Positions 1 through 59,411 of a DNA stretch of 64,000 nt are shown here, piece by piece. Every line of letters begins with the position of its first letter. Position 1 is the stretch's first letter. Source of the DNA: Mobula hypostoma (taxonomy: Eukaryota). The notes below the pieces were generated by a model, which had not been told where the DNA came from, ran no database searches, and was given only the letters and a program-made list of their open reading frames with translations. Location: positions 51,462,001 to 51,526,000 of the forward strand of contig NC_086108.1 of the NCBI RefSeq assembly GCF_963921235.1, given 5' to 3'. The translations under genes and the position numbers were made by a program.

Positions 1-1058
1 ATGAAGACAAAATATGCAAATAAAAAACCCGAGAACTTGAGTTGTATAAAGGGTCCTTGAAAATGATTCTATCGGTAATAGAATCAGTTTAGGGTTGTGA
101 TGGGTGAAGTTATCCTTGCAGGTTCAGGAGCTGATGGCTGTCGGGTAATAAGTGTTCCTGAACCTAATGGTGAGGGACCTGAGGCTTCTGTACCTCATGC
201 CCAGTGGTAGTGGCAATAACAGAGCATGGCCTGGATGGTGCGGGTCTTGAATGCTGCTTTCTTGTGGCAGCACTCCATGTAAATGTACTGAATTGTAGGG
301 AGGGCTTCGCTTTTGATGGAGTTTGCTGTATCCACCACCTTCTGTAGTGTCTTCTGTTCCTGGGCATTGGTGTTTCCATACCAGGCCATGGTGCAACCAG
401 TTCAGGTACTCTCCACCTTGCACCTATAGAAGATTGTCAAAGTTTTGGTGACGCACCAAATCTATGCAAACTTCTAAGAAAGTAGAGGCGCTCTTGTGCC
501 TTTTGTGCGATGGCAGCAATGTGCTGGTCCCAGGACAGATACGACCACTGACCCTCTCCACTTCTGACCCCCTAATTAGGACTGGCTGATGGACCTCAAG
601 CTTTTCTCTACTGTTGTTGATCATCAGCTCTTTGTTCTGCAGAATTTGAGTGAGAAGTTATTATACTGGCCCCACTTAATCTGATTTTCAGTCTCGCTCC
701 CATATATCAATTCATCACCACCTTTGATTCAGCCACAATAATGCTGTCAAAACAACAATTTAAATATGACATTGGAGCTGCTTATGGCCTCACAGAATGT
801 ATAAAGTGAGTAAAGCAGGGGGCAGGGAACCCAACCTTGTTGTGCACCTGTGCTGATTTTTGCCAGTCAGTACTTACTGGGGTCTGCCAGTGAGGAAATC
901 AAGTATCTGGTTACACAGGGAGATGATAGTATTGAATGCTGTAATCAATGAAGCTATAGTCCTAATGTGTGCATCATCGTCATCCAGGTGTACCAGAGCT
1001 GAGTGAAGGGCCAATGAAATGGCATCTACTGTTGACCTGCTGTGACGGTAAACAAGCT
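1..1058 (-). mobile_element. Rex1/Babar-like LINE fragment (RT C-terminal part and 3' region), degenerate
   Basis: Minus-strand peptides RSTVDAISLALHSALVHLD..FNTII..CNQILDFLTGRPQ and QDPHHPGHALL are typical of Rex1-type RT. Frames are broken. Confidence 0.7.
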
Positions 1059-1061
1059 GGT

Positions 1062-3043
1062 CTCTGTTCCCTCCAAGCTGTGCGCGTGCACACACGTTTT
1101 TCAACCAGCACAGTAAGGAAATTAATGTGTGCACAAAAGGTTAGTTATCTAAAATAATGTCGTAATTAATAATTATACTTACTGAAAATAATCTCTTAGC
1201 TAAATGTTTCTGTTAACTAGTTAGTGGGTTTTTCAAATACCACAATGAACATCACTAACTTACGTCACCTCCCCTTTCCTGTTCCAGTTTGTACAGCTGC
1301 ATCACGGCAGCAGCCATCTTTGGCGGACAGTGTTCATATCGTAAAGTTTACAAAGATCTGTTTCAAATCCTGTAGATAGCTTACTAAGTTTTTATTGAAA
1401 AAAATCAGTCAAATGACCCTGTGGCTAAATACTGTCACAAGAAATTGATAAACATCACATGCTAAGCAGCTTTACAGGTTTTAAGTGATGCTTTGATGAA
1501 CTGGCTGCACTGCGCAAGATTCTGCAAAAGAGAGGCCTGACACTGATTGATTCACTTCATTTTGCGCAAGGCAAAATTAACAAGATAAGAAAGCAGTATC
1601 TGGGAGACTATGTTTCATGAAGTGACAAAGTTAAAGTTTTGCTAAGCCAACAACATGAAGAAAACATCACAGTAGATACAAGTTCGCTGTTGACTTTTAT
1701 AAATAGTCTTTGTGTTCATTTAGAAGAAAGGTTTCCTGAAGATGAGGTACAAGAATGGTCAGTTTTTGATTTCTCCACAATTGCAGATTGTGACTTCACA
1801 TTTGGCGATGAAGAAGTTAATGCCTTATGTCTAAAATATCATGATTTTCTAGCTGAAAATACTGTAATAGTTAGACAGTTTAATGATCTCAAATTTTCCG
1901 TGCAAGAAAAAATTAAATCCAAACTGATTTCAAACTTTGCTCAAATGGTGGCATTTGTACTTCAAAATGAACAGTTTTGCAACCTTGCACAGTTGATGGA
2001 CATTGGGGGAGCCTTTCTTGCGTCTAGTGCGAACTGTGAGTGAGGTTTTAGCCTAATGAATCAACTTAAAAACAAGCTGAGAAACCATTTAGGTGAATGT
2101 TATTTGGATATGTCATGTGGCGGGAGGAGAAGATGGCAGTGCGACGCAGCGCACGCAGCCCTCCGGTGAAATGATATCGGTATTTGTAAGTAGGACGTGC
2201 ACAATTGTGCACAATTCTGATTTGATGGAGACAGACGTGAGAAGCAGTGGAACATCTGGAGAAATTTCTGAAATGCCCGGTTCGCTGCCGCTGCTACTGT
2301 GCGATCGAGAATCTCCGGAGGGAAGGCCCCAAAGTCACCAGCTTTGCTTGCTGCTGGCGACCGCTGAGGTTGAAGCGTTCGGCAGAGATGGTGCTCAGTA
2401 CTCGGTGTTGGAGGGCTGATTGGAGCTCGAAGTTTTCGGACGACTCAGAGTCGGACTGTGGTCGGGCATGGCAGGGAGAGTTTTCTTCCTTCTCCCGTCT
2501 GCGTGAGATGTGGGATTTTCGAGAGATTTTGAACTTTTTTACTGTGCCACGGCCTGTTCTTCATCAAGTTATGGTATTGTTGCACTGTTGTAAGTATATG
2601 TTATAATTATGTGTTTTTTGTTAGTTTTTCAGTCTTGGTCTGTCCTGTGCTTCTGGGATATCACACTGGAGGAATATTGTATCATTTCTTAATGCATGCT
2701 TTACTAAATGACAATGAAAAAGGACTGTGTGTCCTCATAATCTAATCTAATCTAATATGTTAATGAAAATCAAAACCTATCAATTGGATGGAAGTTCTAT
2801 TAGTCTAGATAAGAGTTTACAAAGAATGGGTAAATGCCAAAGACAGGAGAGAGAGCAAATAACTGATTGACTTAAATAAGTATGTAATTTTGTTGTTATT
2901 CTGTGGTTTTATGTCAAATATTTTGTAAACCTACATAAATTTGTCATGTGTGCATTCAGTGCGCACATACTTTTGTCACAGGAAAAAAATTTGCACATAA
3001 GATTTTTGCGTACACCAACTACTAAAAATTAGAGGGAACATTG
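1062..3043 (+). mobile_element. hAT DNA transposon relic (ZNF862-like transposase C-terminus), internally deleted
   Basis: Imperfect TIRs: ctctgttccctccaa at 1062 and ttagagggaacattg ending at 3043. ORF 1639-2043 ends ASSANCE*GFSLMNQLKNKLRNHL, the hAT dimerisation motif. No TSD found. Confidence 0.75.
2113..2754 (+). mobile_element. ~640-bp non-autonomous retroelement (LINE-UTR-derived, SINE-like), copy 1
   Basis: Starts ggaggagaagatggc and ends with an (aatct)n tail. Flanked by atatgt duplications inside the hAT transposase. Homologous copies at 24777-25350 and 32685-33245. Confidence 0.75.
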
Positions 3044-4140
3044 GACAGCAGTATGACTGAAGCCTGCTGGAAGCAGGTGGGTGCCTCGGACTGCCGAAGT
3101 GGGGGATTGAAGATGTCCATAAACAATCCAGCCAATTGATTAGCACAGGTCTTCAGGTAGGCCATCTAGGCCAGAACCTTTCTGTGGATTCTCACAGATC
3201 AGCCTCAGAGACTGAGATCATAGGGTCATCGCATGGTTCAAGAAGGCGTCTCCATGTTCTATCAATCCAGGCAAGGATAAAAGACATTGAGCTCACCTAG
3301 GAATGAAATCTTGTTGTCATTTATGGTGTTTGGTTTTACTTTATAGGAGCTGATGGCATTCAACTCTTGCCACAGTGTTGAGCATCTCTCTGTAATTCCA
3401 GTTTAGTCTGTAATTTCCACCTTTGCATGTGAGATGGCCTTCCAGAGGTCATACATGGATCTCTTGTGCTTTTCTTGACAACAGGTCCTGAATGCTACTG
3501 CTCCTATCATCAGCAGATTTGGAATCTCTTGGTTCATCCAGGACTTCTGGTTGGGAAAGACTCTGAATGATTTTCTGAGGACACACTTGTCTGCAAGCAT
3601 CTTTATGAAGTGACAACCGTGGCATATTCATTCAGGTCCTCTGATGAGTACTTGAACACAGACCATTCCATTGACTTGAGGCAGTCCCATAGCTGCTTCT
3701 CTAACTCCTGTGACCACCTCTATGTTTCCCTTATCTCTGGTGCCTTGCTGTTTAGTCTCTGCCTATATGGAGGACACCTAGACGGTCAGATTTCCCAAAA
3801 TACGCTCAAGGGATGACATGGTAGGTATTCTTGATGGTAGTGTAGCAGTGGTTTAGTGTGTTAGATCCTTTGGTGCTGTAGGCAATGTGCTGATGGTAAT
3901 TGGGCAGAAATTTCTTCAAGCTAGCCTGATTGAAGCTTTCAACAAGGATGTGTAGGCCATTTCTTGTATGTTAGTCATAGCACTCAATACATCGAGTGCA
4001 AGCATGACATCCGTCTTCGGCAGTACTGGACGGAAACTGTAGTCAGCATCACAGTGGGAAAATTCTTGGTATGTAGAATGGCCAGCATTTAATAATTTGA
4101 TGCTCCAAGTTTATCATCATCAGGTTAATCATTAGATGTT
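3044..4140 (-). mobile_element. Rex1/Babar-like LINE fragment (endonuclease-RT linker)
   Basis: Minus-strand peptide KSFRVFPNQKSWMNQEI. Same strand and family as 1-1058. Confidence 0.65.
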
Positions 4141-5807
4141 CAGAGTAAATCTAGGGATCAAAAACTAGCATGGAGAAAAGGAAGAAATCAATGAAGACTC
4201 AAAGGGGGAATTATAGGTGTAGAGTACCCAAGAGGGAAAAAATTAGCAATTCAAATATACAAATTGCTTTTCTGTGTATTTCCTAATAGTAATACTATGT
4301 TGGAACATTAAACTTCTGCCTCATAAATGCTAGGCATAACTTTCCATATAATCATAGCACATTAAATGCAATTTACATTTATGTTGAATTTTTATAACTA
4401 AATGTATATCTGAAAATTCTCATGAGAGCTTTGCCAGAATACTAATGATATTAGTATTAACTTAAATGTATTAATATTAACTGAATGCACTAAGCTTTAA
4501 TATACAGTATATTGAGCCTTTGCTTACTGTCACTGAGCAATTAGAATAAAATTCAATTGAGCCCTTTGCCTACCTAACGACCTGTACAGGAATATGCAGT
4601 TATGGACCTGAATAGGAACAACTTCTGGCTTGACATAGACACAGTCCTCTCTATGCCTCCTTAGCACCCCTTCTTCTGTCACCCTGCTAGAGCTCTCATT
4701 TAAAGAATTTTATAACTCTTAACCACAATATTTACCTAATGAGAGGGACAATATGCCAAAAATAGCTATCTGGACCACTGGTCTTAATTTTGACCACTAT
4801 TAAACTGGATTTGTTTGGACAAATCTCAAATGTTCAAAAGTTATGTTACTTTCAGATTTTCACAAAAATATAGCCCAACATCAAAATTATGCCTCTGAGT
4901 TCAGAAAAAGAGAGAAGAAATGTGGAGGAGTATTACACTACAGATTGATTCTTTACAAGCCTTCAGCACTGAAAAAGTTGACACCTTTAACACATGGCAC
5001 TGTCAAGTCTCAATAATAAAGAAAACAGGGAAAAGAAAAGTAATCGTGTTAAATGTATAAATAAATGACTTCAGTTTCTGTCAGCCCCCTTCATATTACA
5101 AATGCTGACAACGAAAGAGTTATTTTATCCCCTGTCATCAAAGTGCCATAGATATACAAGAAAAACACAGTTGTTAAGTGCAAATGTGAAAGCTATGTAG
5201 TTCCCTAACCTTGATGGGAATCAGGTTCATAACTACCATTAAGAATGAAACATTTAAAACAAACAGAATAAATTCAAAACTGCGACAAAGTTCTTGTTTT
5301 TTTTAATATCCTATCAGCACATAAATATGAAATATCTATGTACATAAAATATATAGAGTATTAAATTGTGGAAAGAAGTTATTTATTTTCTTTGGTAACC
5401 ACCCAGTTCTCTCAAAGTCAAATATGGTGCTGCAAATGGCCCAAGTCATTTGATCATAAATAAATCTATTCAGAGTATGTGCTGATTCTGGCAACATAAC
5501 TCCAACGTCAGTAATGAATTTGCTGTGGAAAAACTGAATTTATTTCTATAATCTCTCAACACCACAAAACCAGATTTGTCTTTGATCTCTGGTGCTCTAT
5601 GTCATGATATTCCTTTATGAAAATTGACTTTTCTTTTTGTTTATGAAATACTCTGCACTTAGAAATAGTTCACTGGATCTAAAATCTGGAGTACACAGAG
5701 GGCATGTGAAGTTGCTGCAATAATGCAAACTCCAAATTTGCAGGGGACATAAAGGTAGAAAGTGTGGGCAGGTAGTGTTGAGCAGTTGGGGGCACAGGGA
5801 TTTGACA

Positions 5808-6179: not shown

Positions 6180-7029
6180 CTGACAATTTAGTTTAACCCT
6201 TCCAACAGCCCTGTCCCCTGCACCAATTCCTCAGCCACACATGCATCTGCCAAATCATCCTATTCTTATTCTCAACAGCACATTGCACAGGCAGCAATCC
6301 AGTGGTTACTACTTGGTGGTCCTGCTTTTCAGCTTTCTACCGAACTCCCTGCAGTCTCTCTTCAGGGCCTCCTCCCTTTTGCTATCTATGTTGTTGGTAC
6401 CAATATGTGCCACAACTTCCAGCTGCTCACTCGCCCCCTTTAGAATGTCATAGAGCCAATCTGAGACATCCCTGACCCTAGCACCTGGGAGCCAATCTGA
6501 GACGTCCCTGACCCTTGAACCTGGGAGCCAATCTGAGACGTCCCCGACCCTTGAACCTGAGAGCCAATCTGAGACGTCCCTGACCCTAGCACCTGGGAGC
6601 CAATCTGAGACATCCCTGGCCCTAGCACCTGGGAGCCAAGCTGAGACGTCCCTGACCCTAGCACCTGGGAGCCAATCTGAGATATCCCTGACCCTGGCAC
6701 CTTGGAGCCAATCTGAGACATCCCTGATTCTAGCACCTGGGAGGAAACGTACGTCTCATTGACATCCACAATATCCACTTTCTATTCCTCTAGCTATGAA
6801 ATCCACTCTCACTACTGCAGTCCTCTTCTTCCCCTTCCCTTCTGAGCCTCAGAGGCAACAGCGCCAGAGACCCTATCGCCGCAACTTCCCGCTGGTGGGT
6901 CACCCCCGCAACAGTATCCAAAGTGATAGACCTATTATTGAAGGGAACGACTACATACAGTAAGTACTCAGCACTGTCAGCCTCTTCCCTTTCCATCTCC
7001 TGACAGTCACCCAGGAGCTTTCCTCCTGC
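6180..7029 (-). mobile_element. CR1 LINE ORF1 (esterase) fragment
   Basis: Homologous to 15690-16400 of the near-full-length CR1 (VAHIGTNNI and LPGARVRDVS motifs on the minus strand). Confidence 0.7.
6453..6743. repeat. Minisatellite, 8 x 36 bp
   Basis: Unit gagccaatctgagacgtccctgaccctagcacctgg, with starts at 6453, 6489 ... 6705. Confidence 0.95.
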
Positions 7030-22680: not shown

Positions 22681-23172
22681 CTTGATGAAGATGATGGCGT
22701 TGTCATCGAAACGTCAGTTATAATTGATACCTGTACCTGGCTGGAAGCCCAAGGAAAGTTCATTCATCATATACACCTGGAAAGCACTAAATTTTTTTTC
22801 AAAATGCCAGAAGTTTTTTCAGATATATAAAGAGTAAAAGAGAGAAGAGGGTAGATAGTGGACGTGATGCTGGAGGGGTAGTAATGGGGGGACAAAGAAA
22901 TGGCAGGTGAACTGAATAAGTTGTTTACAGCTGTCTTCACCGTGGAAAACACTAGCAGTACAATAGATGTTCGAGAATGTCAGGGGGCAGATGTGAGTGC
23001 CATTGCCATTTCAAGGGAGAAGGTGCTTGGGAAGCTGAAAAGTCTGAAGGTAGATAAGTCACTTGGACCAGATGGACTACACCCCAGGGTTCTGAAAGAA
23101 GTATAGCTGCAGAGATTGTGGAGGCATTAGTAATAATCTTTCAAGAATCACTAAATTTTAGATTTAGATTTA

Positions 23173-24774
23173 CAAACCCCATTTCCAGAAAAGTTGGGAT
23201 ATTTTCCAAAATGCAATAAAAACAAAAATCTGTGATATGTTAATTCACGTGAACCTTTATTTAACTGACAAAAGTACAAAGAAAAGATTTTCAATAGTTT
23301 TACTGACCAACTTAATTGTATTTTGTAAACATACACAAATTTAGAATTTGATGGCTGCAACACACTCAACAAAAGTTGGGACAGAGCTAAAATAAGATTG
23401 AAAAGTGCACAGAATATTCAAGTAACACCAGTTTGGAAGACTCCACATTAAGCAGGCTAATTGGTAGCAGGTGATTTATCATGACTGGGTATAAAAGTAG
23501 CGTCCATCAAAGGCTCAGTCTTTGCAAGCAAGGATGGGTCGTGGCTCACCCCTTTGTGCCAAAATTCGTGAGAGAATTGTTAGTCAGTTCAAAAGGAACA
23601 TTTCTCAACGCAAGATTGCAGAGAATTTAGGTCTTTCAACATTTACAGTACATAATATTGTGAAAAGATTCAGAGAATTCAGAGACATCTCAGTGCATAA
23701 AGGGCAAGGTCGGAAACCACTGTTGAATGCGCGTGATCTTCGAGCCTTCAGGCGGCACTGCCTAAGAAACCGTCATGCTACTGTGTCAATTATAGCCACC
23801 TGGGCTCGGGAGTACTTCGGAAAACCATCATCACTCAACACAGTCCATCGCTGCATCCAGAAAAGCAACTTGAAACCGTCTTATGCAAGGAGGAAGCCAT
23901 ACATCAACTCTATACAGAAACGCTGGCGAGTTCTCTGGGCCCAAGCTCATCTCAGATGGACCGAAAGACTGTGGAACCGTGTGCTGTGGTCAGATGAGTC
24001 CATATTTCAGCTAGTTTTTGGAAAAAATGGGCGTCGAGTTCTCCATGCCAAAGATGAAAACAACCATCCAGATTGTTATCAGCGAAAGGTGCAAAAGCCA
24101 GCATCTGTGATGGTATGGGGGTACATCAGTGCCCACGGCATGGGTGAGTTGCATGTATGTGAAGGTACCATTGACTCTGAGGTGTATATTAGGATTTTAG
24201 AGAGACATATGTTGCCATCAAGGCGACGTCTCTTCCCAGGACGTCCATGCTTATTTCAGCAGGACAATGCCAGACCGCATTCTGCATGGGCTACAACAGC
24301 GTGGCTTTGTAGGCACAGAGTGCGTGTGCTTGACTGGCCTGCTGCCAGTCCAGATCTATCTCCTATTGAAAATGTATGGCGCATCATGAAGAGGACAATC
24401 AGACAACGGAGACCACGGACTGTTGAGCAGTTGAAGTCTTATATCAAGCAAGAATGGACAAAATTTCCAATTACAAATCTACTACAATTAGTATCCTCAG
24501 TTCCAATACGATTAAAAAGTATTATTAAAAGGAAAGATGATGTAACACAATGGTAAACATGCCTCTGTCCCAACTTTTGTTGAGTGTGTTGCAGCCATCA
24601 AATTCTAAATTTGTGTATGTTTACAAAATACAATTAAGTTGGTCAGTAAAACTATTGAAAATCTTTTCTTTGTACTTTTGTCAGTTAAATAAAGGTTCAC
24701 GTGAATTAACATCACAGATTTTTGTTTTTATTGCATTTTGGAAAATATCCCAACTTTTCTGGAAACAGGGTTTG
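23173..24774 (+). mobile_element. Complete Tc1-family transposon (1602 bp)
   Basis: TA TSDs at 23171-72 and 24775-76. Near-identical TIRs of about 213 bp (23173-23386 and 24563-24774) with internal direct repeats aaaagttggga. Confidence 0.97.
23534..24556 (+). CDS. Tc1 transposase, intact, 340 aa, DD34E
   Basis: ATG at 23534, HTH region, GRK motif, WSDES / QQDNARPH / SPDLSPIENVW with 34 residues between the second D and E. No stops. Confidence 0.93.
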   Translation: MGRGSPLCAKIRERIVSQFKRNISQRKIAENLGLSTFTVHNIVKRFREFRDISVHKGQGRKPLLNARDLRAFRRHCLRNRHATVSIIATWAREYFGKPSSLNTVHRCIQKSNLKPSYARRKPYINSIQKRWRVLWAQAHLRWTERLWNRVLWSDESIFQLVFGKNGRRVLHAKDENNHPDCYQRKVQKPASVMVWGYISAHGMGELHVCEGTIDSEVYIRILERHMLPSRRRLFPGRPCLFQQDNARPHSAWATTAWLCRHRVRVLDWPAASPDLSPIENVWRIMKRTIRQRRPRTVEQLKSYIKQEWTKFPITNLLQLVSSVPIRLKSIIKRKDDVTQW

Positions 24775-24776
24775 TA

Positions 24777-25350
24777 GATTATGAGGACACGCAGTCCTCT
24801 TTTATTGTCATTTAGTAATTCATGCATTAAGAAATGATATAATTTTTTCCTCCAGAATGATATCACAGAAACACAAGACAAACCAAGACAAAAAAACTGA
24901 CTAAAACCACATAATTATCACATATAGTTACAACAGTGCAAAGCAATCCATAATTTGATGAAGAACAGACCATGGGCACGGTAAAAAAAAGTCTCAAAGT
25001 CCCTCAAAAGTCCCTTCATCTCACGCAGATGGTTGAAGGGAGAAACTCTCCCTGCCATGAGCTTCCAGCGCTGCAAACTTGCCGATGCAGCATCCTGGAA
25101 GCACCTGACCCCGGCAACAGGCAATAGGCAAAGCCGAGGATTTAGAGCCTTCCCCTCCGGAGATTTTCGATCACATAGTAGCAGTGGCAGCGAAGCAGGC
25201 ATTTCTGAAGTTTCTGCAGATGTTCCTCCGTGCTTCTCATGTCCGTCTCCATCAAATCAGGATTGTGCACGGCCGCTATGTAACAAATATGATATCAATT
25301 CGGAGCCGCTGCACACGCTGAGTCGCGTCGCCATCTTCTCCCCCCCCCTC
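24777..25350 (-). mobile_element. ~640-bp non-autonomous retroelement, copy 2 (tail remnant at ~23157-23172)
   Basis: Reverse complement of 2113-2754. The (agatt)n tail is split by the Tc1. Confidence 0.8.
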
Positions 25351-33245: not shown

Positions 33246-34147
33246 TGACACTGGAGAGACAGTAATGGGGAACAAAGAAATGACAGACGATCTTAATAAG
33301 TATTTTGCGTCAGTCATGACTGTGAAAGGCAGTAACAGAATGCCAGAAATGCAAGGGTGACGGTGGAGGGTGGTGTGGAGGAGAAGTGAGTGTCATTGCT
33401 TTTACTAAGGAGAAGTGTTTAGGAAGCTGAAAGGTCTGAAGGTTAGTAAGTCGCCTGGACCAGATGACTACACCACAGGGTTCTGAAAGAGGTACTAGTT
33501 GAAGAGAATTGTGGAGCCATTGGTACTGATCTTTCAAGAATCACTAGATTCTTGAGGGTCCCGAGGACTGGAAAATTGCAAATGTCTCTCCATTCTTTAA
33601 AAAGTGAGGGAAGCAGAAGAAAGGAAATTATAGGCCAGTTCGACTGACCTCAGTGGTTGGAAAGATGTTGCAGTCCATCCTTAAGGATGAGATTTCAATG
33701 TACTTACAGGCACATGATAAAAAAGGTCAAAGTCAGCATGGGTTTCTAAAGAGTAAATCTTGCCTGACAAATCTGTCGGAATTCTTTGAGGAAATAATAG
33801 GCAGGATAGACAAAAGATTATCGGCGGATGTTGTTTACTTGGATTTTAAGACAACTTTGACAAGGTGCTGCACATGAGGCTGCTTAACTAGTTAAGAGCC
33901 CATGGTATTACAGGAAAGGTACTAGCATGGCTGACTAGCAGGAAGCAAAGAGTGGGTATAAAGGGAGTTTTTTCTGGATAGTTGCCAGTGACTTGTGGTG
34001 TGTCACAGGAGTTGGTGTTAGGAAAACTTTTTTTCTTGTCATATGTCAATGATTTGGATGAAGGAACTAGTGGCTTTGTGACTTAGTTTGTAGATGATAT
34101 GCAAGTAGGTGGACGGGAAAGTAGTGTTGAGGAAGCAGGGTATCTGA

Positions 34148-34700
34148 TGTTATGTTTCGTAACTTCAAAACATGAAACTAAGTTAAGAGAAAACATGGAG
34201 TCCAAAGTGTGAGTCTAATTTTGGGTTTACTTCAAGTGAGGCAACATATATCACACGGTAGCGTGATGACATATGGAGTTCATGTATTTACACATATAAC
34301 CCGTAATGAATGATTAAAGCAAACAAGAATGCTTAATCAAACAATATATTTACAAAATTACTCAAATATTACTGAAATATTAAATACACAATACTCCTCC
34401 CTGCTTAGCTATAAGTGCCAACTCAATAGTGAACGCATCCCAATTATATACACAGTATACTATATGATACAACTACTACATACAGACATTCACAGCACCG
34501 TGAATTTTAAACTGTCCCATTCAGGCCAAAATGATTTCATTGCTGTGGAGGGTTTCTTACTCTTGTGGGATAATGTCTTTCCTGACAAGGGGGGATCAGT
34601 CTGCTTGGCTGTGAAACAATCTCGGGTTATGGAGCCTCCTCCATGGCGGTTGTAGTAGTTGACTCTGAGACTGCAGGAAATGGCTCGGACAGTGGTAGCC
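34148..34700 (-). mobile_element. Gypsy LTR retrotransposon 3' end: integrase tail, PPT and 3' LTR
   Basis: Minus-strand ERHYPTRVRNPP integrase-tail motif, PPT aagcagggaggag (34394-34406), LTR about 34148-34393 ending ...cataaca. Confidence 0.8.
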
Positions 34701-35660
34701 ATCTTTCTTCTTCATCCTTTTTCTTCTTCAGGTTTGTGCATCTTGATCTTGGCAAGGTCCATTTAGTTCACTGGAATGTTCTCTTACTAGTCCTATTGCT
34801 GCCTTTGAGATCTGACCTCTCTTCTTGTTTTCCTCCCACAACATCATCTGATGAATTCTCTGTTTTCATATCTCCATTGACTTCTTTCATTCCATTCATC
34901 CAGCTGGGCTTTGGTCTTTGCATTTACTTTTACAAGCAGCTTTTTGTCTCCCACTTGAAGTTCATGCAATAACCTTAATGCAAGCAGAGTAGATTCTGGT
35001 TCTTTATACTCACAAAAATTGAATGCCTGCAACTTTTCTGAAGCTCCTTGAATTCTCTCCCAGCTTAAAACTAAGCCATATTTCACAAATAATTGCCTGA
35101 TTAACATATCAGAAGCTTTCTCAGGTGTGTAGCCTAAAAAAAACTGTTGTAGTCAGACAACACACACAAAAAGTGCCAGTGAACACAGCAGGCCAGGCAG
35201 CATCTCTAGGAAGAGGTACAGTCGACGTTTCAGGCTGAGACCCTTCATCAGGACTAACGGAAAGAAGAGATAGTAAGAGATTTGAAAGTGGGAGGGGAAG
35301 GGGGAGATCCAAAATGATAGGAGAAGACAGGAGGGGGAGGGATGGAGCCAAGAGCTGGAAAGTTGACTGGCAAAAGGGTTACGAAGCTGGAGAAGGGAGA
35401 GGATCATAGGACAGGAAGCCTAGGGAGAAAGAAAGGGGGAGGGGGAAGCCCAAAAGATGGGCAAGGAGTATAGTGAGAGGGACAAAGGGAGAAAAAGGAG
35501 AGAGAGAAAAAATTTTTTTTTAAATTAATAGTAATTAATAAGTAACGGATGGGGTACGAAGGGGCTGCTTTCGTCACTTTCATAATTCTTCTGAGCAGCA
35601 TGGTCCTTTCTTGATCCAATATGTTTTCCAACCAGAGGCACAGAGGCTGTCACCAACAAA
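34701..35660 (-). pseudogene. RBM25: Processed (intronless) RBM25 fragment including the RRM, split by a Penelope insertion
   Basis: LVTASVPLVGKHIGSRKDH | TTVF..EKASDMLIRQLFVKYGLVLSWERIQGASEKLQAFNFCEYKEPESTLLALRLLHELQVGDKKLLVKVNAKTKAQLDEW..REHSSELNGPCQ matches vertebrate RBM25. Frameshifts and a stop are present; no introns. Confidence 0.92.
35159..35562 (-). mobile_element. Penelope terminal fragment with hammerhead
   Basis: Reverse complement of about 56995-57374. Minus strand agtcctgatgaagggtctcagcctgaaacgtcgact at about 35220-35255. Confidence 0.85.
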
Positions 35661-38002
35661 TGTTTGCCCTCTGCTGGGGAACAGTTCATGGTGTATGGTC
35701 TTGTAGTTATTTCCAATCCCTCTAAACAGCTTCTGTTACCCTGCTCCGATGGTAGTAATGTGAACAGTGCATGTTCAAGATGGAGAAGGTCTTTCATGAT
35801 GGATGAGGCACCACTTGTCAAAGGTGTTCTCAACAGCCGGGAGAGTCGTATCCAGAATGAACTGGCTGTCTACAACCGAAGGGGATCTTAATCAACCAGG
35901 TAAGTCGGCTGAGGATTAACAAATGGCTTTCAGTTTGGATAAATGCAAGGTATTGCATTTTGGGATGTCAAATCAGTGTAGGACTTGTACATGAAAGGTT
36001 TGGGAAGAATGATGAAACACTGAGACCTAAGGGTACATGTTCATAGTTCACTGAAAACAGAGTCACATCTGGACTGGTTGGTGAAGAAGGTGTTTGGCAA
36101 GTTGGGAAATAAATATAGTAGGTGGGCTATATTTTGCAGTTGTACAAGGCACTGGAGAGTCCACACTTGGAGTATTGCATGCCGTTTTAGGTGCTCTGCT
36201 ATAGAAAAGGCATCATTAAGTTGAAATGAATGCAGAGTGGAATCACGAGGGTTATGGCAGGGCTTGAGGGCTTGAGTCTTTGGGAATGCTGGCTAGACTA
36301 GGACTTTATTCCTTGAAGAGTAGGAGATTGAGGGGTGAACTCATGTAAAAACAAGAGGGAGATAGATAGGGTTAATATACATCATCTTTTTTTCCTAGGA
36401 CAAAGAACTAAAAACTAGGTTAAGGAGAGAGGTGAAAGACTTAAAAGGGACCTATAGGGAAATTTATTCACTCAGAGGGTTGTGAGTTTACAGAATGGGC
36501 TGCCAGAAAAAGTGGTCGTATAATAACAACATTCAAAAGACATAGGGAAGAATTCACACAGATGAAGGGCTAAGTGCGAAGAAATGGGGACTAGTTTGAC
36601 AGGCAACATAGTTGGCATGGATTGTTGGGACAAAGGGTCTGTTTAAACTGTGTTATTCTATGATTCTATAAATTCAAGAGACAGCATCTCTTCATCTGAC
36701 TAGCAAATGAACCAAAGGCAACATGAGGAAAAACATTTTGTTCAAACACATGACTAGCATCTGGAATGCATTGCCTAAAAAGGTGGAATTGATTCAATCA
36801 TGCCTTTCAAACTAGAACTAGATCTGTACTTGAAAGAAAGAATTGCAGGTCTACAGGGAAAGGGCAGTGGAGTGGGACCAGCTGCATTGTGCTTTAAGAG
36901 AATTGACATGGACTTGAAATGCTAAGCCTTATGAGGTGCTTTGATTCCAGGCACATTACAGCTTTACAGACTCAACAAATTCAAATAACTCTTTGGTTAT
37001 TCACTTTTACACCTCGTCTAAACTCATTGTTTCCCATAACCACCTTATTTCCCTGCATCACCATACCTCCAATCACTAGCCTTTACTGCTTTCCACCCTT
37101 CCACAAATATTTCATCCTGTTCTTTCCATTTCTTTCTCTTCAACTGTAACTTTTAATAGTTCTGATAAAAGACTAATTGCTTGAAACCGTAAATATTCCT
37201 CTTTGTATGAATGTATCACAAGCTGCTGAGTACTTCCATATATTTTCTGTTTACAGATTTCCTTTTGTTACAGCTTTTGTGTTTAATTTATCGTTAGTTA
37301 AAAGGATGTGATCATCAACTAAAAATGGTAAAGCTTTTGTGGATGTTTTATAAGTCCAAACCTCCGGCAAGTCAAAGTTATGCCAGTGATATGCTGTGGT
37401 ATTCTCTATAACTTTCTGGTCAACAACTCATTCACTTTATCAGAAGATAAAGAATTTTGTCTGAGACATCATTGCTTTCAACAATCTACTGGCAATTGTG
37501 AACAACAGAATAAAGAATGAAGAGGATGGCACCAGCAAACAACATGACCAAGGGCGACATCCTCCAGACGGTTCATGAAATTGCTTCTTCCACTTCTTTT
37601 ACATCTTCTTTTTCTTGCAGATGTGGTTCTGTTGCTGTTGAAGCCTGTGATCTACATTTGGTTGGTGTGTTTTGGGGGCGATTGAATGATCAGGCACTTT
37701 GCTGTCTCCAAGTGTGTTCAATGAGTTATCAAGCGAAGCATGGGGCCTGGAGGCCAAGAAGCCTAAAGGCAGGGTGCAAGTCCATGATTGATGCCATTTC
37801 TTGCCGATCTTGCCAATCACATTGAGGAAGACTGAAACCAACAAGGACAAGAGCAGAGGATGCCAACTACCTGCAGGTGACTGGTCCCTCTCCCCCTCTC
37901 ACTCACTGTAGCCAGATGAAGGTGTCTGCATGTGACCGGTCTCTTATTCCCTCTCGCCGCTGCTCCTGGAGGAAGGTGTCTGTGTACAATCAATATATAT
38001 AT

Positions 38003-42500: not shown

Positions 42501-45500
42501 AACTTCTGGTTACTGCTGATCTGCAGAATGTTGATGATGGAGAGGATTTTGTGCCAGTTATGTCAGTGCAAGTCAAAAGGAAGTCAGTGGACATTCTTTT
42601 TATTGGAGGTGGTCATCGACTGGCAATTATGTAATGCAAATATTGTTTTCCAGCTATCAAACTAGACCTAGATGTTTTCCAGTTCTTGGTGCATGTGGCC
42701 ATGTTGTGAAGAATTACAAATGGAGATAAATGTCCAGCAATCATGACACAACTTGGGCTCTTATAAATTTCTATGGATATACCATGGAGAGCATTCTGAT
42801 TAGTTCCATCACAGCCTGCTATTGATCCTCAAATGCACAGGACAGCAAGAAGCTGCAGAGAGCTATAGACTCAGACAACTTAATCATGGATACAAACCTT
42901 GCATCAAGGACATCTTCAAGAGGCAGTGCCTCAGAAAGGTGGCATCTGTCATTGAGGACTCTCATCATCTAGGACACGCCCTCTTTTCATTGCTGTCGTC
43001 AGGGAGGATTTACAGGAGCCTGGAGACCCATATTCAATGATTTTGTAATAGCTTCTTCCACGATCGGATTTCTGAACACTCCACAAACCTGTGATTGTAA
43101 CCTCTTCGTTCCTATTTTGCACTATTTATAGATTTAATTTATAGATTTTTGTTGTTCTGCAAAAACAACAAATTTCATGTCATGATAATCTGACTGATTC
43201 TCACCATGTGGTTGACAGTAGGTGTTTGATGAATGAGGGTAAATCTTGGATTGGGATACAGAATTCTAATTTTTTGCAGTTGAATTTCTTATGCCTTGGA
43301 TTTCAAGCATCTTCAGACTTTTGCGTGTTTAAATTTCTTATGTTTGTATTTTCATATCATTATCTACATACATGTAATTTTTCAGTGAGCTTTCTAGTGG
43401 TTGCACTTGTCACTGTATTTTTCTGGAAACCTTGATTTCAGTGGTAGGTGTCATATTACATAAATCTGGCTATCTCATTGGTCAACTGTTACCAATGGTT
43501 ATCAGTAGTCTGATATGACAAGACCACACTGGGTTTTTTTAGCCTTCTGCTGTTTCCTTTGTTCTCTCTCACCATGCTTCTTAGTTTTCATTGTTTTTGT
43601 ATCAATTAATAAAGCGATTGTAAGCAAGAAGTTTCATGCCTCATTCTTGACTTCCAAAGAATCTTTGGATCTGAAAGGCCTAAAATTCCAATAATCCTTT
43701 CAATTTAAGGTAAAGCAGACACAAAGACGTTTTAATAGGAATTTAACTTACCCAAATAATTTACTGCAGTTTTGAGGAGATTTTGGTGAGTCAAAGGCTT
43801 TGCAAGGGCTAGTTTTAATGTGCAGATTTTAATAAATGACTCACCGTAGCATTGACTGGGTTCAATAAAATTTGCCACAATAACACTGGATGGAGTGTAT
43901 CTAGTTTCTTTGAAGGTGGAGACATATGAAAGAACCATTAGGAATCACGATCTTTCAAAATTTGGTTCAAAATATTGATATAATTTCCAAACTCAACTTT
44001 TTCATGCATTAGGCCCGGTTGACATTGTGGATAGTCATGCAGCTCTCTTTTCTTAGCTTCTTGGTTGTTTGATTGTTGCCAAGATTTTCTGATGTGAAAT
44101 AGCAATGATACTGTAATTAAGGAGCACATAAAAATATTGCAGAATGAGGATTGGACAACCGAAATTACAATCAGTTTTATCAGCCTGATCATAAGTTCCT
44201 CTCTGGTGCCTCTGGAAATGTTTTCCTTCTTTCCCAAAGGAATAAACTGTTAAAGCTATTGAACTCCACACAAAATGTCACTGAAGAACTGATTGAAATG
44301 TGTTCCATTGAACATAGCTCCCACTTTATAACAAAAGGTTCAATTCAATAATATAAAAAACTTGACTTTGTTCCAAAATATTTTCCTTCAAGCCCATGTG
44401 TGCTTTGTGATTTGCAAGTTTTATTTGATCATATCAGTAAGAGTCTTTTTCCATCAATGTACTTACATTAATGGTTACCAATGCAACTCTCATTGTAGCA
44501 CAGTTCTGGCTGATGAAGTGGTTCTCCTAAATGTACTCCAGCTCCAACTATATCTTCACTTGCCCTTAATCCTCTATAGCTCAGAGCAAAACTCTCTCCC
44601 CTCCAGCGATTCAAAAGAAACTAAATGTTGCAATTCACTGTAAATTTGGAAGAGAGGTTTATAAAATCACATTAAGTAGTTTCAACGTAAAGTGATGTGA
44701 AAAGATTTTCTTGATATAAATTGAACACTTCTTTATATTTTACTATAATTCCATTAAAAAGGCTGATGGAACATCACAATATGTTGCTGAAAGGCCCATC
44801 AGGGCCTGTACTGTTCTGCACCCTAATAGCACATGAGGAAGTTGTGGGTGCAGAGACCATAATCTTTCAATGCTCTTTGTACCTCAAGATGGTAGCAAAG
44901 TAGAGAATGGCCAATTGATATAACACCCTTGCTTAAAAAGAGAATAGAAATAAAGCTTTCAATACAATTTAATCTCAGAGGTAGGAAAGGCTTTTTAAAT
45001 CATTGATCTAGGATAGAACTAATAAATAACCTGGATGAAAATGGATTAAGCAAGGCAAACCAGCACAGATTTGTTAAACACATATTGTGCTAAAAAAATT
45101 GATTAATGTTTTAATGAAGAAAAATTGATGATAGTTATGTGGTGTTCCTGGAGCAAAAAACCCTTGATAGCATGGATGCAAAATTGTCTGAGTAACAGAT
45201 GACAAAGGTCGTGGTGAACAGTTGTTTTGAGGACTGGACGAAGATGAAAAGTGATATTGTCCAAGGATCACTGTTAAAACCATTGCTCCAGGTTAATGAC
45301 TTATACTTGGGGTGGGTGGAACCAACAATTACCAAAACTTGGCAATGTGTAAACTGAGAAGGATGTAGTAATAAATTGCAGCAAGATATGATAGACTGGT
45401 AGAATGGGCAGATGTATGGCAGATGAAGTTTAATCTGGAAATATGTGGTGACACTTTTTGATATTAAGAATGAGAAGACACAATACAGAATAAAATATGG

Positions 45501-55399: not shown

Positions 55400-57374
55400 C
55401 GCAAACAACAGGAATTCTGCAGATGCTGGAAATTCAAGCAACACACATCAAAGTTGCTGGTGAACGCAGCAGGCCAAGCAGCATCTGTAGGAAGAGGTGC
55501 AGTCGACGTTTCAGGCCGAGACCCTTCGTCAGGTCTAACTGAAGGAAGAGAGAGTAAAGGATTTGAAAGTTGGAGGGGGAGGGGGAGATCCAAAATGATA
55601 GGAGAAGACAGGATGGGGAGGGATAGAGCAGAGAGCTGGACAGGTGATAGGCAAAAGGGGATACGAGAGGATCATAGGACAGGAGGTCCAGGAAGAAAGA
55701 CAACGGGGGGGGGCACCCAGAGGATGGGCAAGAGGTATATTCAGAGGGACAGCTTACACGGATAAGTACCAGGAGGGAGATCAGTGGGGAGGGATGGAGG
55801 GGATGAATGGACAAGGGAGTTGTGTAGGGAGCGATCCCTGCGGAATGCAGAGACGGGGGGGAGGGAAAGATGTGCTTAGTGGTGGGATCCCGTTGGAGGT
55901 GGCGGAAGTTACAGAGAATAATATCCAACTTTCACCCTGCCCTCAAGTTTACCTGGTTCTAACTTCCACCCTGCCCTCAAGTTTACCTGGTTCCAACTTT
56001 CACCCTGCCCTCAAGTTTACCTGGTCCATTTCCGACACCTCCCTCCCCTTTCTAGATCTTTCTGTCTCTGTCTCTGGAGACAGCTTATCCACTGATGTCT
56101 ACTATAAGCCTACTGACTCTCACAGCTATCTGGACTATTCCTCTTCTCACCCTGTCTCTTGCAAAAACGCCATCCCCTTCTCCCAATTCCTCCGTCTCCG
56201 CCGCATCTGCTCTCAGGATGAGACTTTTCATTCTCGGACGAGGGAGATGTCTTCCTTTTTTAAAGAAAGTGGCTTCCCTTCCTCCATTATCAACTCTGCT
56301 CTTAAACGCATCTCCTCCATTTCACGTACATCTGCTCTCACTCCATCCTCCCGCCACCCCACCAGGAGTAGGGTTCCCCTGGTCCTCACCTACCACCCCA
56401 CCAGCCTCCGGGTCCAACATATTATTCTCCGTAACTTCCGCCACCTCCAACGGGATCCCACCACTAAGCACATCTTTCCCTCCCCCCCCGCATTCCGCAG
56501 GGATCGCTCCCTACACAACTCCCTTGTCCATTCGTCCCCCCCCATCCCTCCCCACTGATCTCCCTCCTGGCACTTATCCGTGTAAGCGGAACAAGTGCTG
56601 CACATACCCTTACACTTCCTCCCTTACCACCATTCAGGGCCCCAAACAGTCCTTCCAGGTGAAGCAACACTTCACCTGTGAGTCGGCTGGGGTGATATAC
56701 TGCGTCCGGTGCTCCCGATGTGGCCTTTTATATATTGGCGAGACCCGACGCAGACTGGGAGACTGCTTTGCTGACATCTATGCTCTGTCCGCCAGAGAAA
56801 GCAGGATCTCCCAGTGGCCACACATTTTAATTCCACATCCCATTCCCATTCTGACATGTCTATCCACGGCCTCTTCTACTGTAAAGATGAAGCCACACTC
56901 AGGTTGGAGGAACAACACCTTATATTCTGTCTGGGTAGCCTCCAACCCCTTGGCATGAACATTGACTTCTCTAACTTCCGCTAAGGCCCCACCTCCCCCT
57001 CGTACCCCATCTGTTACTTATTTTTATGCACACATTCTTTCTCTCACTCTCCTTTTTCTCCCTCTGTCCCTCTGAATATACGTCTTGCCCATCCTTTGGG
57101 TCACCCCCCGTTGTCTTTCTTCCCGGACCTCCTGTCCCATGATCCTCTCGTATCCCCTTTTGCCTATCACCTGTCCAGCTCTTGGCTCCATCCCTCCCCC
57201 TCCTGTCTTCTCCTATCATTTTGGATCTCCCCCTCCCCCTCCAACTTTCAAATCCCTTACTCACTCTTCCTTCAGTTAGTCCTGACGAAGGATCTCGGCC
57301 TGAAACGTCGACTGCACCTCTTCCTACAGATGCTGCTTGGCCTGCTGCGTTCACCAGCAACTTTGATGTGTGTT
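55400..57374 (+). mobile_element. Penelope-like element with inverted 5' copy of its 3' end
   Basis: 14-bp TSD gcagtctgattagg at 55386-55399 and 57375-57388. 55400-55925 is inverted; 55926-57374 is sense with PFLDL, YKPTDSH and GIY-YIG (VIYCVRC..LYIGET). Confidence 0.92.
57278..57313 (+). ncRNA. Minimal type I hammerhead ribozyme motif (Penelope-associated)
   Basis: agtc-CTGACGA-a-ggatctcggcct-GAAAC-GTC-gact: stem I agtc/gact, conserved cores, palindromic acgt stem III. Confidence 0.8.
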
Positions 57375-59411
57375 GCAGTCTGATTAGGGATAGTTTGCAT
57401 GTCTTTTATGAGGGGCAGGCCATGCCTCACAAGCCTGGTTGACTTCTTCAAGGAAGTGACAAGACAAATTGATGAAGGTAGAGTAATGAATGTGCTGTAT
57501 AAGGGTTTTAATAAGGTGTTCGAAAACCTTCTCTATGGTAGGCTCAATCAGAAAGTCAGGAGGCATAGGATCCAGGGAAACTTGGCTGCATGGATTCAGA
57601 ATTGGCTTACACAAAGATGGCAGAGGATGATAGGAAACGGAGAATATTCTGCCTGGAGGTCTGTGACTAGTGGTGCTTCGCAAGGATCTGTTCTGGGACC
57701 TCTGTTCTTTGTGATGTTTATAAATGACTTGGATGAGGAAGTGAAAGGTGGGTTAGTATGTTTGCAGATGACATGAAGGGTTGGTAAAGTTATGGATAGT
57801 GTGGAGGGTTGTCATAAGTTGCAAAGGGACATTGACCAGTTACTGAGTTGAGCTGAGAAGCGGCAGATGGTGTTCAATCCAAAAAAGTATGAAGTGATAC
57901 ACTTTGGAAGATTGAACTTGACAGCAGAGTGCAAAGTTAATGGCAAGATTCTATTGATCCCTCAAAGTTGCTGTGCAAGTTGGTAGGGTAGTTAAGAAGA
58001 CATATGGTGTGTGGTCTTCATTAGTTGAGGTTTGAGTTCAAGGGCCATGAGGTAATTTTGCAGCTCTCCAAGACCCAAATAAGGCCACACTTAGACTATG
58101 ACGTTCACTTTTGTTTGCTTCCTTACAGAAAGAATATGGAAGTTTTAGAGAGAGTGCAGGGGAGTTTTACCAGGCTACAGCCTGAATTAGAGAATATGTC
58201 TTATGAGAGAAGTAGCAACCTAGTGCTTTTCGCTTTGAAGCAAAGGAGGATGAGCGGCGACTTTCTAGAGGTGTATAAAATGATAAGAGGCATAGATAGG
58301 AGTGGACAGCCAACACCTTTTTACCAGGGAAATAATGGCTAATACAAGAGGACATATTTTAAAGATGGTTGGAAGAAGGTATCAGAGGTAGGGGGTGGTG
58401 AAATAGATAGATTCATTAGGGAGATTTACAAGACTCTTAGGTTGGTACATGGATGAAATAAAAATGGAGGGCTATGTGGGAGAGAAGGGTTAGATTCATC
58501 TCGGAATGGGTTAAAAGTCGGAACAACATTGTGGGCCTAAGGGCATGTACTATGCTGTATTGTTCCATGTTTTCAAAATGTAAATAGACCTCTACAACGT
58601 AGACAAATCTTGCTGCCAACTTGTTGAGCCCTAGGCCCCAGACTCAACCTTGCTCTATTCTTCTATAGTTGAATAGTTGGACCATGCCTTTTTAAAAATC
58701 TATTGAAGGTTTACCGATGTTGTAATGTTCCAAGTTTATCTTTTGCAAATACTTAATCTGTTTTATGTCTTAATCTCTTCTCTATTTTGATATGTTATCA
58801 TACGTCATCAAAAAAGACACCATAAGGGCTGTTTTCCTCGAAAATCATCCATTTTGCAATTTCCGTAACACCAATCCTTTCTTACTCCCATTGAATCCCA
58901 TGTTATAAATGGAGATATGTTCCTGCAGGAAGTTTGACACTTGACAGTAATGTCACAATGGATTCACAGTCTATGAGCAAATGAATTTTGATTGTCTTGT
59001 CTTGTGTCTTGTGCCTAAGAGCTGTTATTGTAATTAATTAGAGATGGACATTACATGTTTGACCAAATTATACAAATATCAACAGAAAAGTTGCCTTGTC
59101 AAAAAAGGTAGCGAAAACAACACTCAAAGTGTATATTGCAATGCATAGAGTATAAGAAATAAGATGGATGATCTGTTACACTATTACAGATTGTCAGGTA
59201 TGATGTTGTGGCCATCAGTAAATCATGGCTGAAGGATGCTTGTAGTTGGGAGCTCTAAGTCCAAGGTTATGTGTTGTATTGGAGGGATAGGAAGGTCAAC
59301 AGAGGGGGTGGTGTGGCTCTGCTGGTAAAGAATGGCATCAAATCAGTGGAAAGATGTGACAGGATTGGAAGATGTTGAATCCTTGTGGGTTGAGCTAAGA
59401 AACTGCAAGGG

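Follow-up and report, generated by a model that had tools for sequence, protein, structure and literature searches.

On the minus strand of the DNA analyzed here, a stretch of 64,000 nucleotides (hereafter the window), a fragment of the host gene RBM25 is joined directly, and in the same orientation, to the 3' end of an LTR retrotransposon. The question that this locus raises is how a piece of host mRNA came to lie within such an element. A preliminary description had proposed a single chimeric retrocopy, made by an LTR element rather than by a LINE. To examine this, we performed homology searches with the window, which is vertebrate DNA rich in LINE-type and Penelope-like repeats, and placed contigs from four of 24 listed runs on positions 33950-35950 at 80% likeness. 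Runs X1 and X15 come from one organism (A), X5 from a second (B), and X9 from a third (C); the run types are guesses, with X15 taken as RNA and the other three as DNA.

The RBM25 fragment and its spliced origin

A minus-strand reading frame at 35152-34847 matches the Pfam RRM_1 profile (E 6.8e-6), and its top database match is an RBM25-like protein of the shark Heptranchias (80% identity over 85% of the query). When shark RBM25 was compared with the window by tblastn, it aligned in colinear blocks at 35695-35564 (64% identity), 35140-34877 (80%), ~34900-34840, and 34835-34701 (54-57%), with the linker between the RRM block and the last block sitting in another frame (shark isoform X2). The fragment is broken by frameshifts and one stop codon, and consists of two parts: a 3' part with the RRM and the following linker (34701-35152, minus strand), and a 5' part (35565-35695, minus strand) in which 12 codons of an alternative segment are spliced to the VLVPT exon, the whole corresponding to residues 3-46 of shark isoform X2. 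It stops about a quarter of the way into the RBM25 coding region. The peptides quoted in the preliminary description were found in the sequence; the start of the fragment, which had been set at 35660, moves 35 bases further 5' to 35695, and a 412-bp repeat at 35153-35564, missed in that description, splits the fragment.

The 12-codon piece of the 5' part scores higher than any other of the 127,924 six-frame positions in the window. The corresponding upstream segment is present in three of 291 fetched proteins, namely two shark models and one protein of the same cluster. Together with the shark protein as the top RBM25 match, this shared segment points to a cartilaginous fish as host, perhaps a ray to judge by its repeat types. 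The captured RNA corresponds to an alternative RBM25 splice form, in which a YTMN segment is joined to the nearer of two acceptors lying 12 bases apart. This segment also occurs in other copies of the family described below, as 100 contigs cover position 35660 in X1.

The fragment passes four exon borders of its parent gene without a gap, that is, four introns are missing, in agreement with the earlier description of the segment as intronless. Three of these positions lie in the 3' part (35084|35083, ~35029, and 34873|34872). The four borders are defined jointly by read-through proteins, partial proteins, isoforms, and one genomic exon. First, in 88 of 106 short database proteins the RBM25 match starts at AFGFCEY without the preceding residues and stops at NG-V without the next exon, so that they behave as read-through of a single genomic exon and mark two borders. 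Second, partial proteins end or start at borders: 13 terminate at KLQ and three at the K/E-rich stretch, and two each begin at KCG and at VLVP. Third, an intron is placed before VLVPT because two shark isoforms differ there by four residues. Finally, in an amniote-type RBM25 gene fragment (L001), the sole RBM25 locus among the 576 pattern matches listed from metagenome loci, the last captured exon is preceded by AG and followed by GT.

LTR, purine tract, and coding-like tail

The element end comprises a 246-bp LTR with 30% GC (34148-34393, minus strand), which is the 3' LTR of the element. As the preliminary description had noted, it is directly adjoined by a putative polypurine tract (34394-34406, minus strand; 12 of 13 bases are purines, including all of the last nine), so named from its position. 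An LTR with inverted termini together with a purine tract is a hallmark of non-autonomous LTR families that this copy retains. The outer edge of the LTR is marked by a CA end and a terminal inverted repeat, in which five of seven bases match in this copy, and is further supported by a CR1 reverse-transcriptase frame that halts at 34147. At the inner edge, 859, 836, and 856 contigs of the three DNA-type runs leave the window at 34391 into non-matching sequence (agreement 0.37-0.38). Such a pile of departing contigs is what the starts of numerous 5' and solo LTRs would produce, and the consensus of the loose ends opens with the canonical LTR dinucleotide. No second LTR was found anywhere in the 64-kb window, consistent with the earlier statement that no 5' LTR is visible, and a 23-base pattern spanning tract and LTR matched nothing in metagenome and viral contigs.

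In each DNA-type run, about 555-561 contigs match the first 70 bases of the LTR and then diverge at 34325, a pattern suggestive of other LTR subfamilies that have just the beginning of U3 in common. Peak depth over the LTR (21,000-37,000 times single-copy) therefore overstates the size of the RBM25-carrying family.

Upstream of the purine tract lie a stop codon and a 3' untranslated stretch of the internal region (34407-34539, minus strand), with a depth of ~700-1,350 times single-copy in the bins at 34419-34552. These are preceded by a coding-like tail of 58 codons with one internal stop (34540-34713, minus strand), which, from its resemblance to a known motif, may be the C-terminus of a Gypsy integrase. 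Neither a word-indexed protein search (three candidates, none with E<=1) nor a phmmer search against 1.84 billion proteins returned a match for this tail, which as a short, low-complexity query makes such results weak evidence; Pfam also gave no match over the stretch, in a different frame. At the internal stop, 95% of the laid depth in X1 carries a different letter, so this stop is private to the present copy, and the tail frame of the family is probably open at that site.

The junction between RBM25 and the element

The alignment to the L001 exon, together with the contig and the joint described below, delimits a purine-rich junction zone (34701-34715, minus strand) that can be read either as the end of an RBM25 exon or as the start of the tail. 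The match to the L001 exon continues right up to the last base of that exon. The terminal 14 bases of this alignment are low-complexity purines that match the amniote exon at ~9 positions and could just as well encode the opening codons of the tail, in frame with the KKKK run. Because these purines fit both readings, the switch point lies somewhere in 34715-34701, 0-14 bases before the exon end. Microhomology at the junction is plausible, since the junction falls within 15 purine-rich bases, although this tract stops where the parent exon does.

A reverse transcriptase jumping between templates within this tract is the origin that we favor, and the position of the tract raises an alternative. 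A sense-oriented LTR element residing in an RBM25 intron could have had the exon donor spliced to a cryptic acceptor in its tail, producing a chimeric RNA that ended in the LTR, was packaged, and required one recombination at its 5' side. RBM25 homology does reach the last exon base in the genomic locus, and both the partial proteins and the read-through models put an intron right after the K/E-rich stretch. Nevertheless, the ambiguity of the terminal 14 bases weakens this coincidence, a break this near an exon end would arise by chance about one time in ten by our estimate, and template switches near exon junctions have been reported for BLASTOPIA elements (PMC5131818, in the text accessible to us). 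We therefore consider splicing into the tail an unlikely origin.

Past the junction, no homology was detected to later RBM25 exons, nor to the L001 intron (score 22, against 21.3 +/- 3.1 for shuffled sequences), and no poly(A) follows the RBM25 fragment, as the preliminary description had observed. That description had also pointed to target-site duplications around RBM25 alone as a sign of independent insertion; the sole direct repeat of at least five bases between the flanks is one 5-mer, 39 bases upstream. The loss of such a duplication is conceivable, the 5' flank of this copy being secondary.

These observations bear on two further origins. One is a LINE-made RBM25 pseudogene that landed inside an LTR element and lost its 3' part and poly(A), along with part of pol, to a deletion before non-autonomous amplification. 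The end product would look alike, the window is rich in LINEs, and deletions act at this locus, where the 5' part of the copy is gone. On the other hand, this course of events requires an extra step, neither later RBM25 exons nor a poly(A) have left a trace, and the shared orientation and the position of the junction in a common purine tract fit template switching, making a LINE origin improbable in our view. The other is an RBM25 circular RNA serving as template, a source that has been suggested for the mouse circRFWD2 pseudogenes with LTR sequence at their flanks. The internal exons, the terminus at an exon end, the lack of poly(A), and the adjacent LTR resemble that case as described in the accessible text of PMC4897178, but the exon order here is colinear and includes no back-splice junction, so that a circular template appears very improbable.

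We also asked whether the same chimeric junction occurs in further copies, a check proposed in the preliminary description. At contig level it does: a 16%-diverged record of X1 (record 2; 34648-34888) spans the junction, reaching 53 bases into the tail and ~170 into RBM25, and one joint in X15 also crosses it. Direct linkage thus comes from one DNA-type contig and one X15 joint among the 32 pieces listed of 258,797. Depth in the junction bin is 596, 778, and 1,092 times single-copy in X1, X5, and X9, respectively, which falls between the values of the neighboring bins, and no pile of loose contig ends was seen at the junction among 24 of 5,588 rows listed, a weak hint in the same matter.

X15 joints at 34699-34715 and 34760-34836 show contigs of depth 151 that have a different 15-base stretch at the junction and leave out 75 bases further along. 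Given the guessed run type, these contigs possibly represent one expressed copy of the family.

Insertion site and later history of this copy

The element was inserted into the reverse-transcriptase region of a CR1-type LINE (33251-34147, plus strand), which forms the left flank and was identified by a Pfam RVT_1 match (E 2.3e-5, below the curated cut-off) and by homology to other LINEs of the window up to the LTR end. The right flank consists of an unrelated LINE-like repeat fragment (35729-35876, minus strand), ~63% identical to window positions 184-302 and 42943-43019, and of the 3' part of a CR1-type LINE (35839-36517, plus strand), which by tblastx and blastn to other window LINEs is a different copy from that on the left. 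A single LINE cleanly split by the element was considered and rejected, as the flanking CR1 pieces overlap in reverse-transcriptase coordinates and differ in type; the right piece is 56% identical to a window copy that matches the left flank at 72-74%.

Contig depth falls from ~500 to ~13 times single-copy at ~35695, where the family match ends, placing a deletion breakpoint there, followed by 33 unassigned bases beyond the family match (35696-35728, no strand assigned). Such a deletion best explains the missing 5' LTR, upstream internal region, and target duplication. In A, B, and C alike, own-locus contigs span the breakpoint, with differences of 3.1% (B) and 7.6% (C), and since those of B and C cross it, both the insertion of the element and its 5' deletion predate the split of the three organisms. 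Divergence of the paralogues is roughly double that of the A-C orthologues.

The 412-bp repeat that interrupts the RBM25 fragment (35153-35564, minus strand) is a later insertion of the 3' end of a Penelope-like repeat, 80% identical to window positions 56995-57375, and is skipped by contig joints in all four runs. We presume the repeat to be Penelope-like on the basis of a GIY-YIG-like motif in a frame upstream of 56995-57375, and Pfam returned no match for this frame. The depth of the inserted repeat at 35491-35557 is ~18,000 times in A, ~32,000 times in B, and ~13 times in C, and this subfamily probably expanded after C split off. Because a contig across the edge of the insert is present in B, none is found for C among the contigs listed, and the subfamily is scarce in C, the insertion itself is probably later than the split of C.

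Other repeats were recognized elsewhere in the window. At 55434-57375, two inverted Penelope-like pieces (arms 55438-55710 and 57104-57376, 96% complementary) enclose a long open frame (55602-56558) and the GIY-YIG-like motif, with no Pfam match. At 23168-24779, inverted arms (23220-23386/24563-24729 and 23168-23236/24711-24779, 96% complementary) lie ~1.2-1.5 kb apart, possibly as a DNA-transposon remnant. A tandem array with a 36-base period and ~10 units occupies 6417-6776. An Rfam search over 33500-36600 returned nothing at E<=0.5, and the window contains no tRNA gene.

A high-copy family carrying RBM25

Contig depth was expressed relative to that of the own-locus contigs (20.4 in X1, 9.23 in X5, and 17.3 in X9), leaving aside bins that overlap the 412-bp insert. 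On this scale, the mean summed depth over six bins of the RBM25 part is 1,129, 1,643, and 2,221 times in X1, X5, and X9 (range 417-5,374), and that over four bins of the tail is 1,237, 1,867, and 2,399 times; summed contig depth is not a copy number and varies six-fold between bins. In X1 it drops to ~8 times single-copy at 34807-34822, a stretch with indels in this copy.

At each of six RBM25 sites, at least 92-124 contigs per run carry a letter other than that of the window. That letter restores the shark RBM25 residue at all four non-synonymous sites (the other two being synonymous), indicating that the changes in this copy are private decay from an RBM25-like founder. In addition, divergence of 10-19% was measured for 18 long pieces of the three non-RNA runs, the majority of which span at least one intron position. 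These 18 are what remains of the 32 pieces listed after removal of eight from X15, four from the own locus, and two belonging to a split record; 258,765 further pieces lie outside that set.

RBM25 and tail depth are similarly very high, and other intronless copies are present in three organisms; at contig level, therefore, RBM25 and the tail have multiplied as a unit. Depth, contig counts, the diverged intronless pieces, and the bridging contig indicate at this level many copies sharing the rearranged structure, and contigs of X15, the run guessed to be RNA, also cover the chimera. The RBM25-carrying element seems to exist in hundreds or thousands of copies, a figure that derives from contig depth rather than from counted loci. 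In the protein searches with RBM25, no further family copies were recognizable among the 120 matches listed of 230, nor in 106 of 106 short proteins, and the metagenome loci contained none among the 576 pattern matches listed.

The parallel multiplication also bears on whether an RBM25 retrocopy and an LTR element were inserted separately and fused by a local deletion. The locus is indeed a mosaic of nested, truncated repeats, and a single DNA-type contig bridges the junction among the pieces listed. Yet the junction recurs in another copy that is 16% diverged, the depths of RBM25 and tail agree in three runs, and hundreds of separate RBM25 copies would have needed a means of spread of their own; chance neighbors are thus very hard to credit.

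Proposed origin of the chimera

Taken together, we think it likely that the locus is the dead remnant, with its 5' part deleted, of one member of an old non-autonomous LTR family carrying an RBM25 mRNA that was captured once, probably by template switching. The preliminary view of a chimeric retrocopy made by an LTR element rather than a LINE is strengthened by the lack of poly(A) and of an RBM25-only duplication and by the presence of the chimera in other copies; the notion of a one-off event gives way to a high-copy family.

According to this model, an RBM25 mRNA with the extra upstream segment would have been packaged together with the RNA of an LTR element. Having copied the 3' LTR, then the purine tract and the coding tail, the reverse transcriptase would have switched to the mRNA within a GAA/AAG-rich stretch common to both, and a second jump would have taken it back to the element further upstream. 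As seen at contig level, the resulting chimera has multiplied as a unit, presumably mobilized in trans by an autonomous partner. The present copy lies in a CR1 LINE, and its 5' LTR, with all sequence beyond 35695, was already gone when A, B, and C diverged. It has since received the Penelope-like fragment, probably after C had split off, and appears to have decayed neutrally, with nothing intact encoded.

The ratio of RBM25 to tail depth is ~0.9 in the three runs. It is conceivable, though doubtful, that this near equality reflects a chimera that came to outnumber its own helper, and that the captured exons, which belong to a conserved splicing factor, aided the spread of the element, either because silencing them by small RNAs would carry a cost for the host or through RNA processing and export signals. 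If they did, the host would possess on the order of a thousand RBM25-exon copies from which small RNAs targeting its own gene could arise.

Such a family in a vertebrate, with diverged copies numbering hundreds to thousands across three organisms, would permit dating of the capture, recovery of both switch points from many copies, and a test of the effect, favorable or adverse, of a captured host fragment on a retrotransposon. In addition, such copies risk being mis-annotated as an expansion of the RBM25 gene family, can cause the genuine RBM25 gene to be masked through repeat libraries, and can divert RNA-seq reads away from it.

Comparison with known captures

Host mRNA has entered LTR genomes in the human HERV-K/FAM8A1 capture and in transducing retroviruses, in both cases with loss of the coding genes and dependence on a helper. 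The former is a single locus and the latter are exogenous virus stocks, neither being a germ-line family of the size suggested here. Both are mentioned by Tan et al. (2016; PMC5131818), who described LTR-mediated retroposition of host mRNA from fly to human.

According to the accessible text of that study, nine fly retrocopies occupy 18 insertion sites and each vertebrate genome contains 3-8 such loci; secondary retroposition and one-sided loss in older copies are reported, as are the switches of BLASTOPIA near an exon junction. Like those retrocopies, the RBM25 copy is a partial, intronless, 3'-truncated mRNA piece in the interior of an LTR element, without poly(A) or target duplication, where it replaces internal sequence; its loss of one side and its presumed spread as a non-autonomous element also resemble them. 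It differs in that LTR-element sequence, expected on both sides of such retrocopies, lies only on the 3' side here, in that depth points to hundreds or thousands of copies in three organisms, and in that the host is a cartilaginous fish, a group outside the sample given in that text. For maize Bs1, the same source gives 1-5 copies, three donor genes, and a proposed protein, whereas the present family has one donor gene and, judged by depth, a far higher copy number, and the copy studied is dead. Our searches found no report of RBM25 capture in cartilaginous fish, of RBM25 retrocopies linked to LTRs, or of an RBM25 expansion in ray genomes; they covered mainly sources other than subscription literature and repeat databases.

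A further parallel is provided by the 33-42 circRFWD2-derived mouse pseudogenes beside LTR sequence (MMERVK10C-int) described by Dong et al. (2016; PMC4897178). As far as the accessible text goes, both cases comprise many copies of the internal exons of one host gene, without poly(A) and with an LTR adjacent, and they differ in that the mouse pseudogenes have a back-splice junction while the RBM25 copy is colinear. The copy number here is apparently one to two orders higher, as estimated from depth. Within the accessible parts of these two papers, then, the mechanism is known and previous cases range from 1 to 42 copies, and it is the scale of the RBM25 family that is unusual (PMC5131818; PMC4897178).
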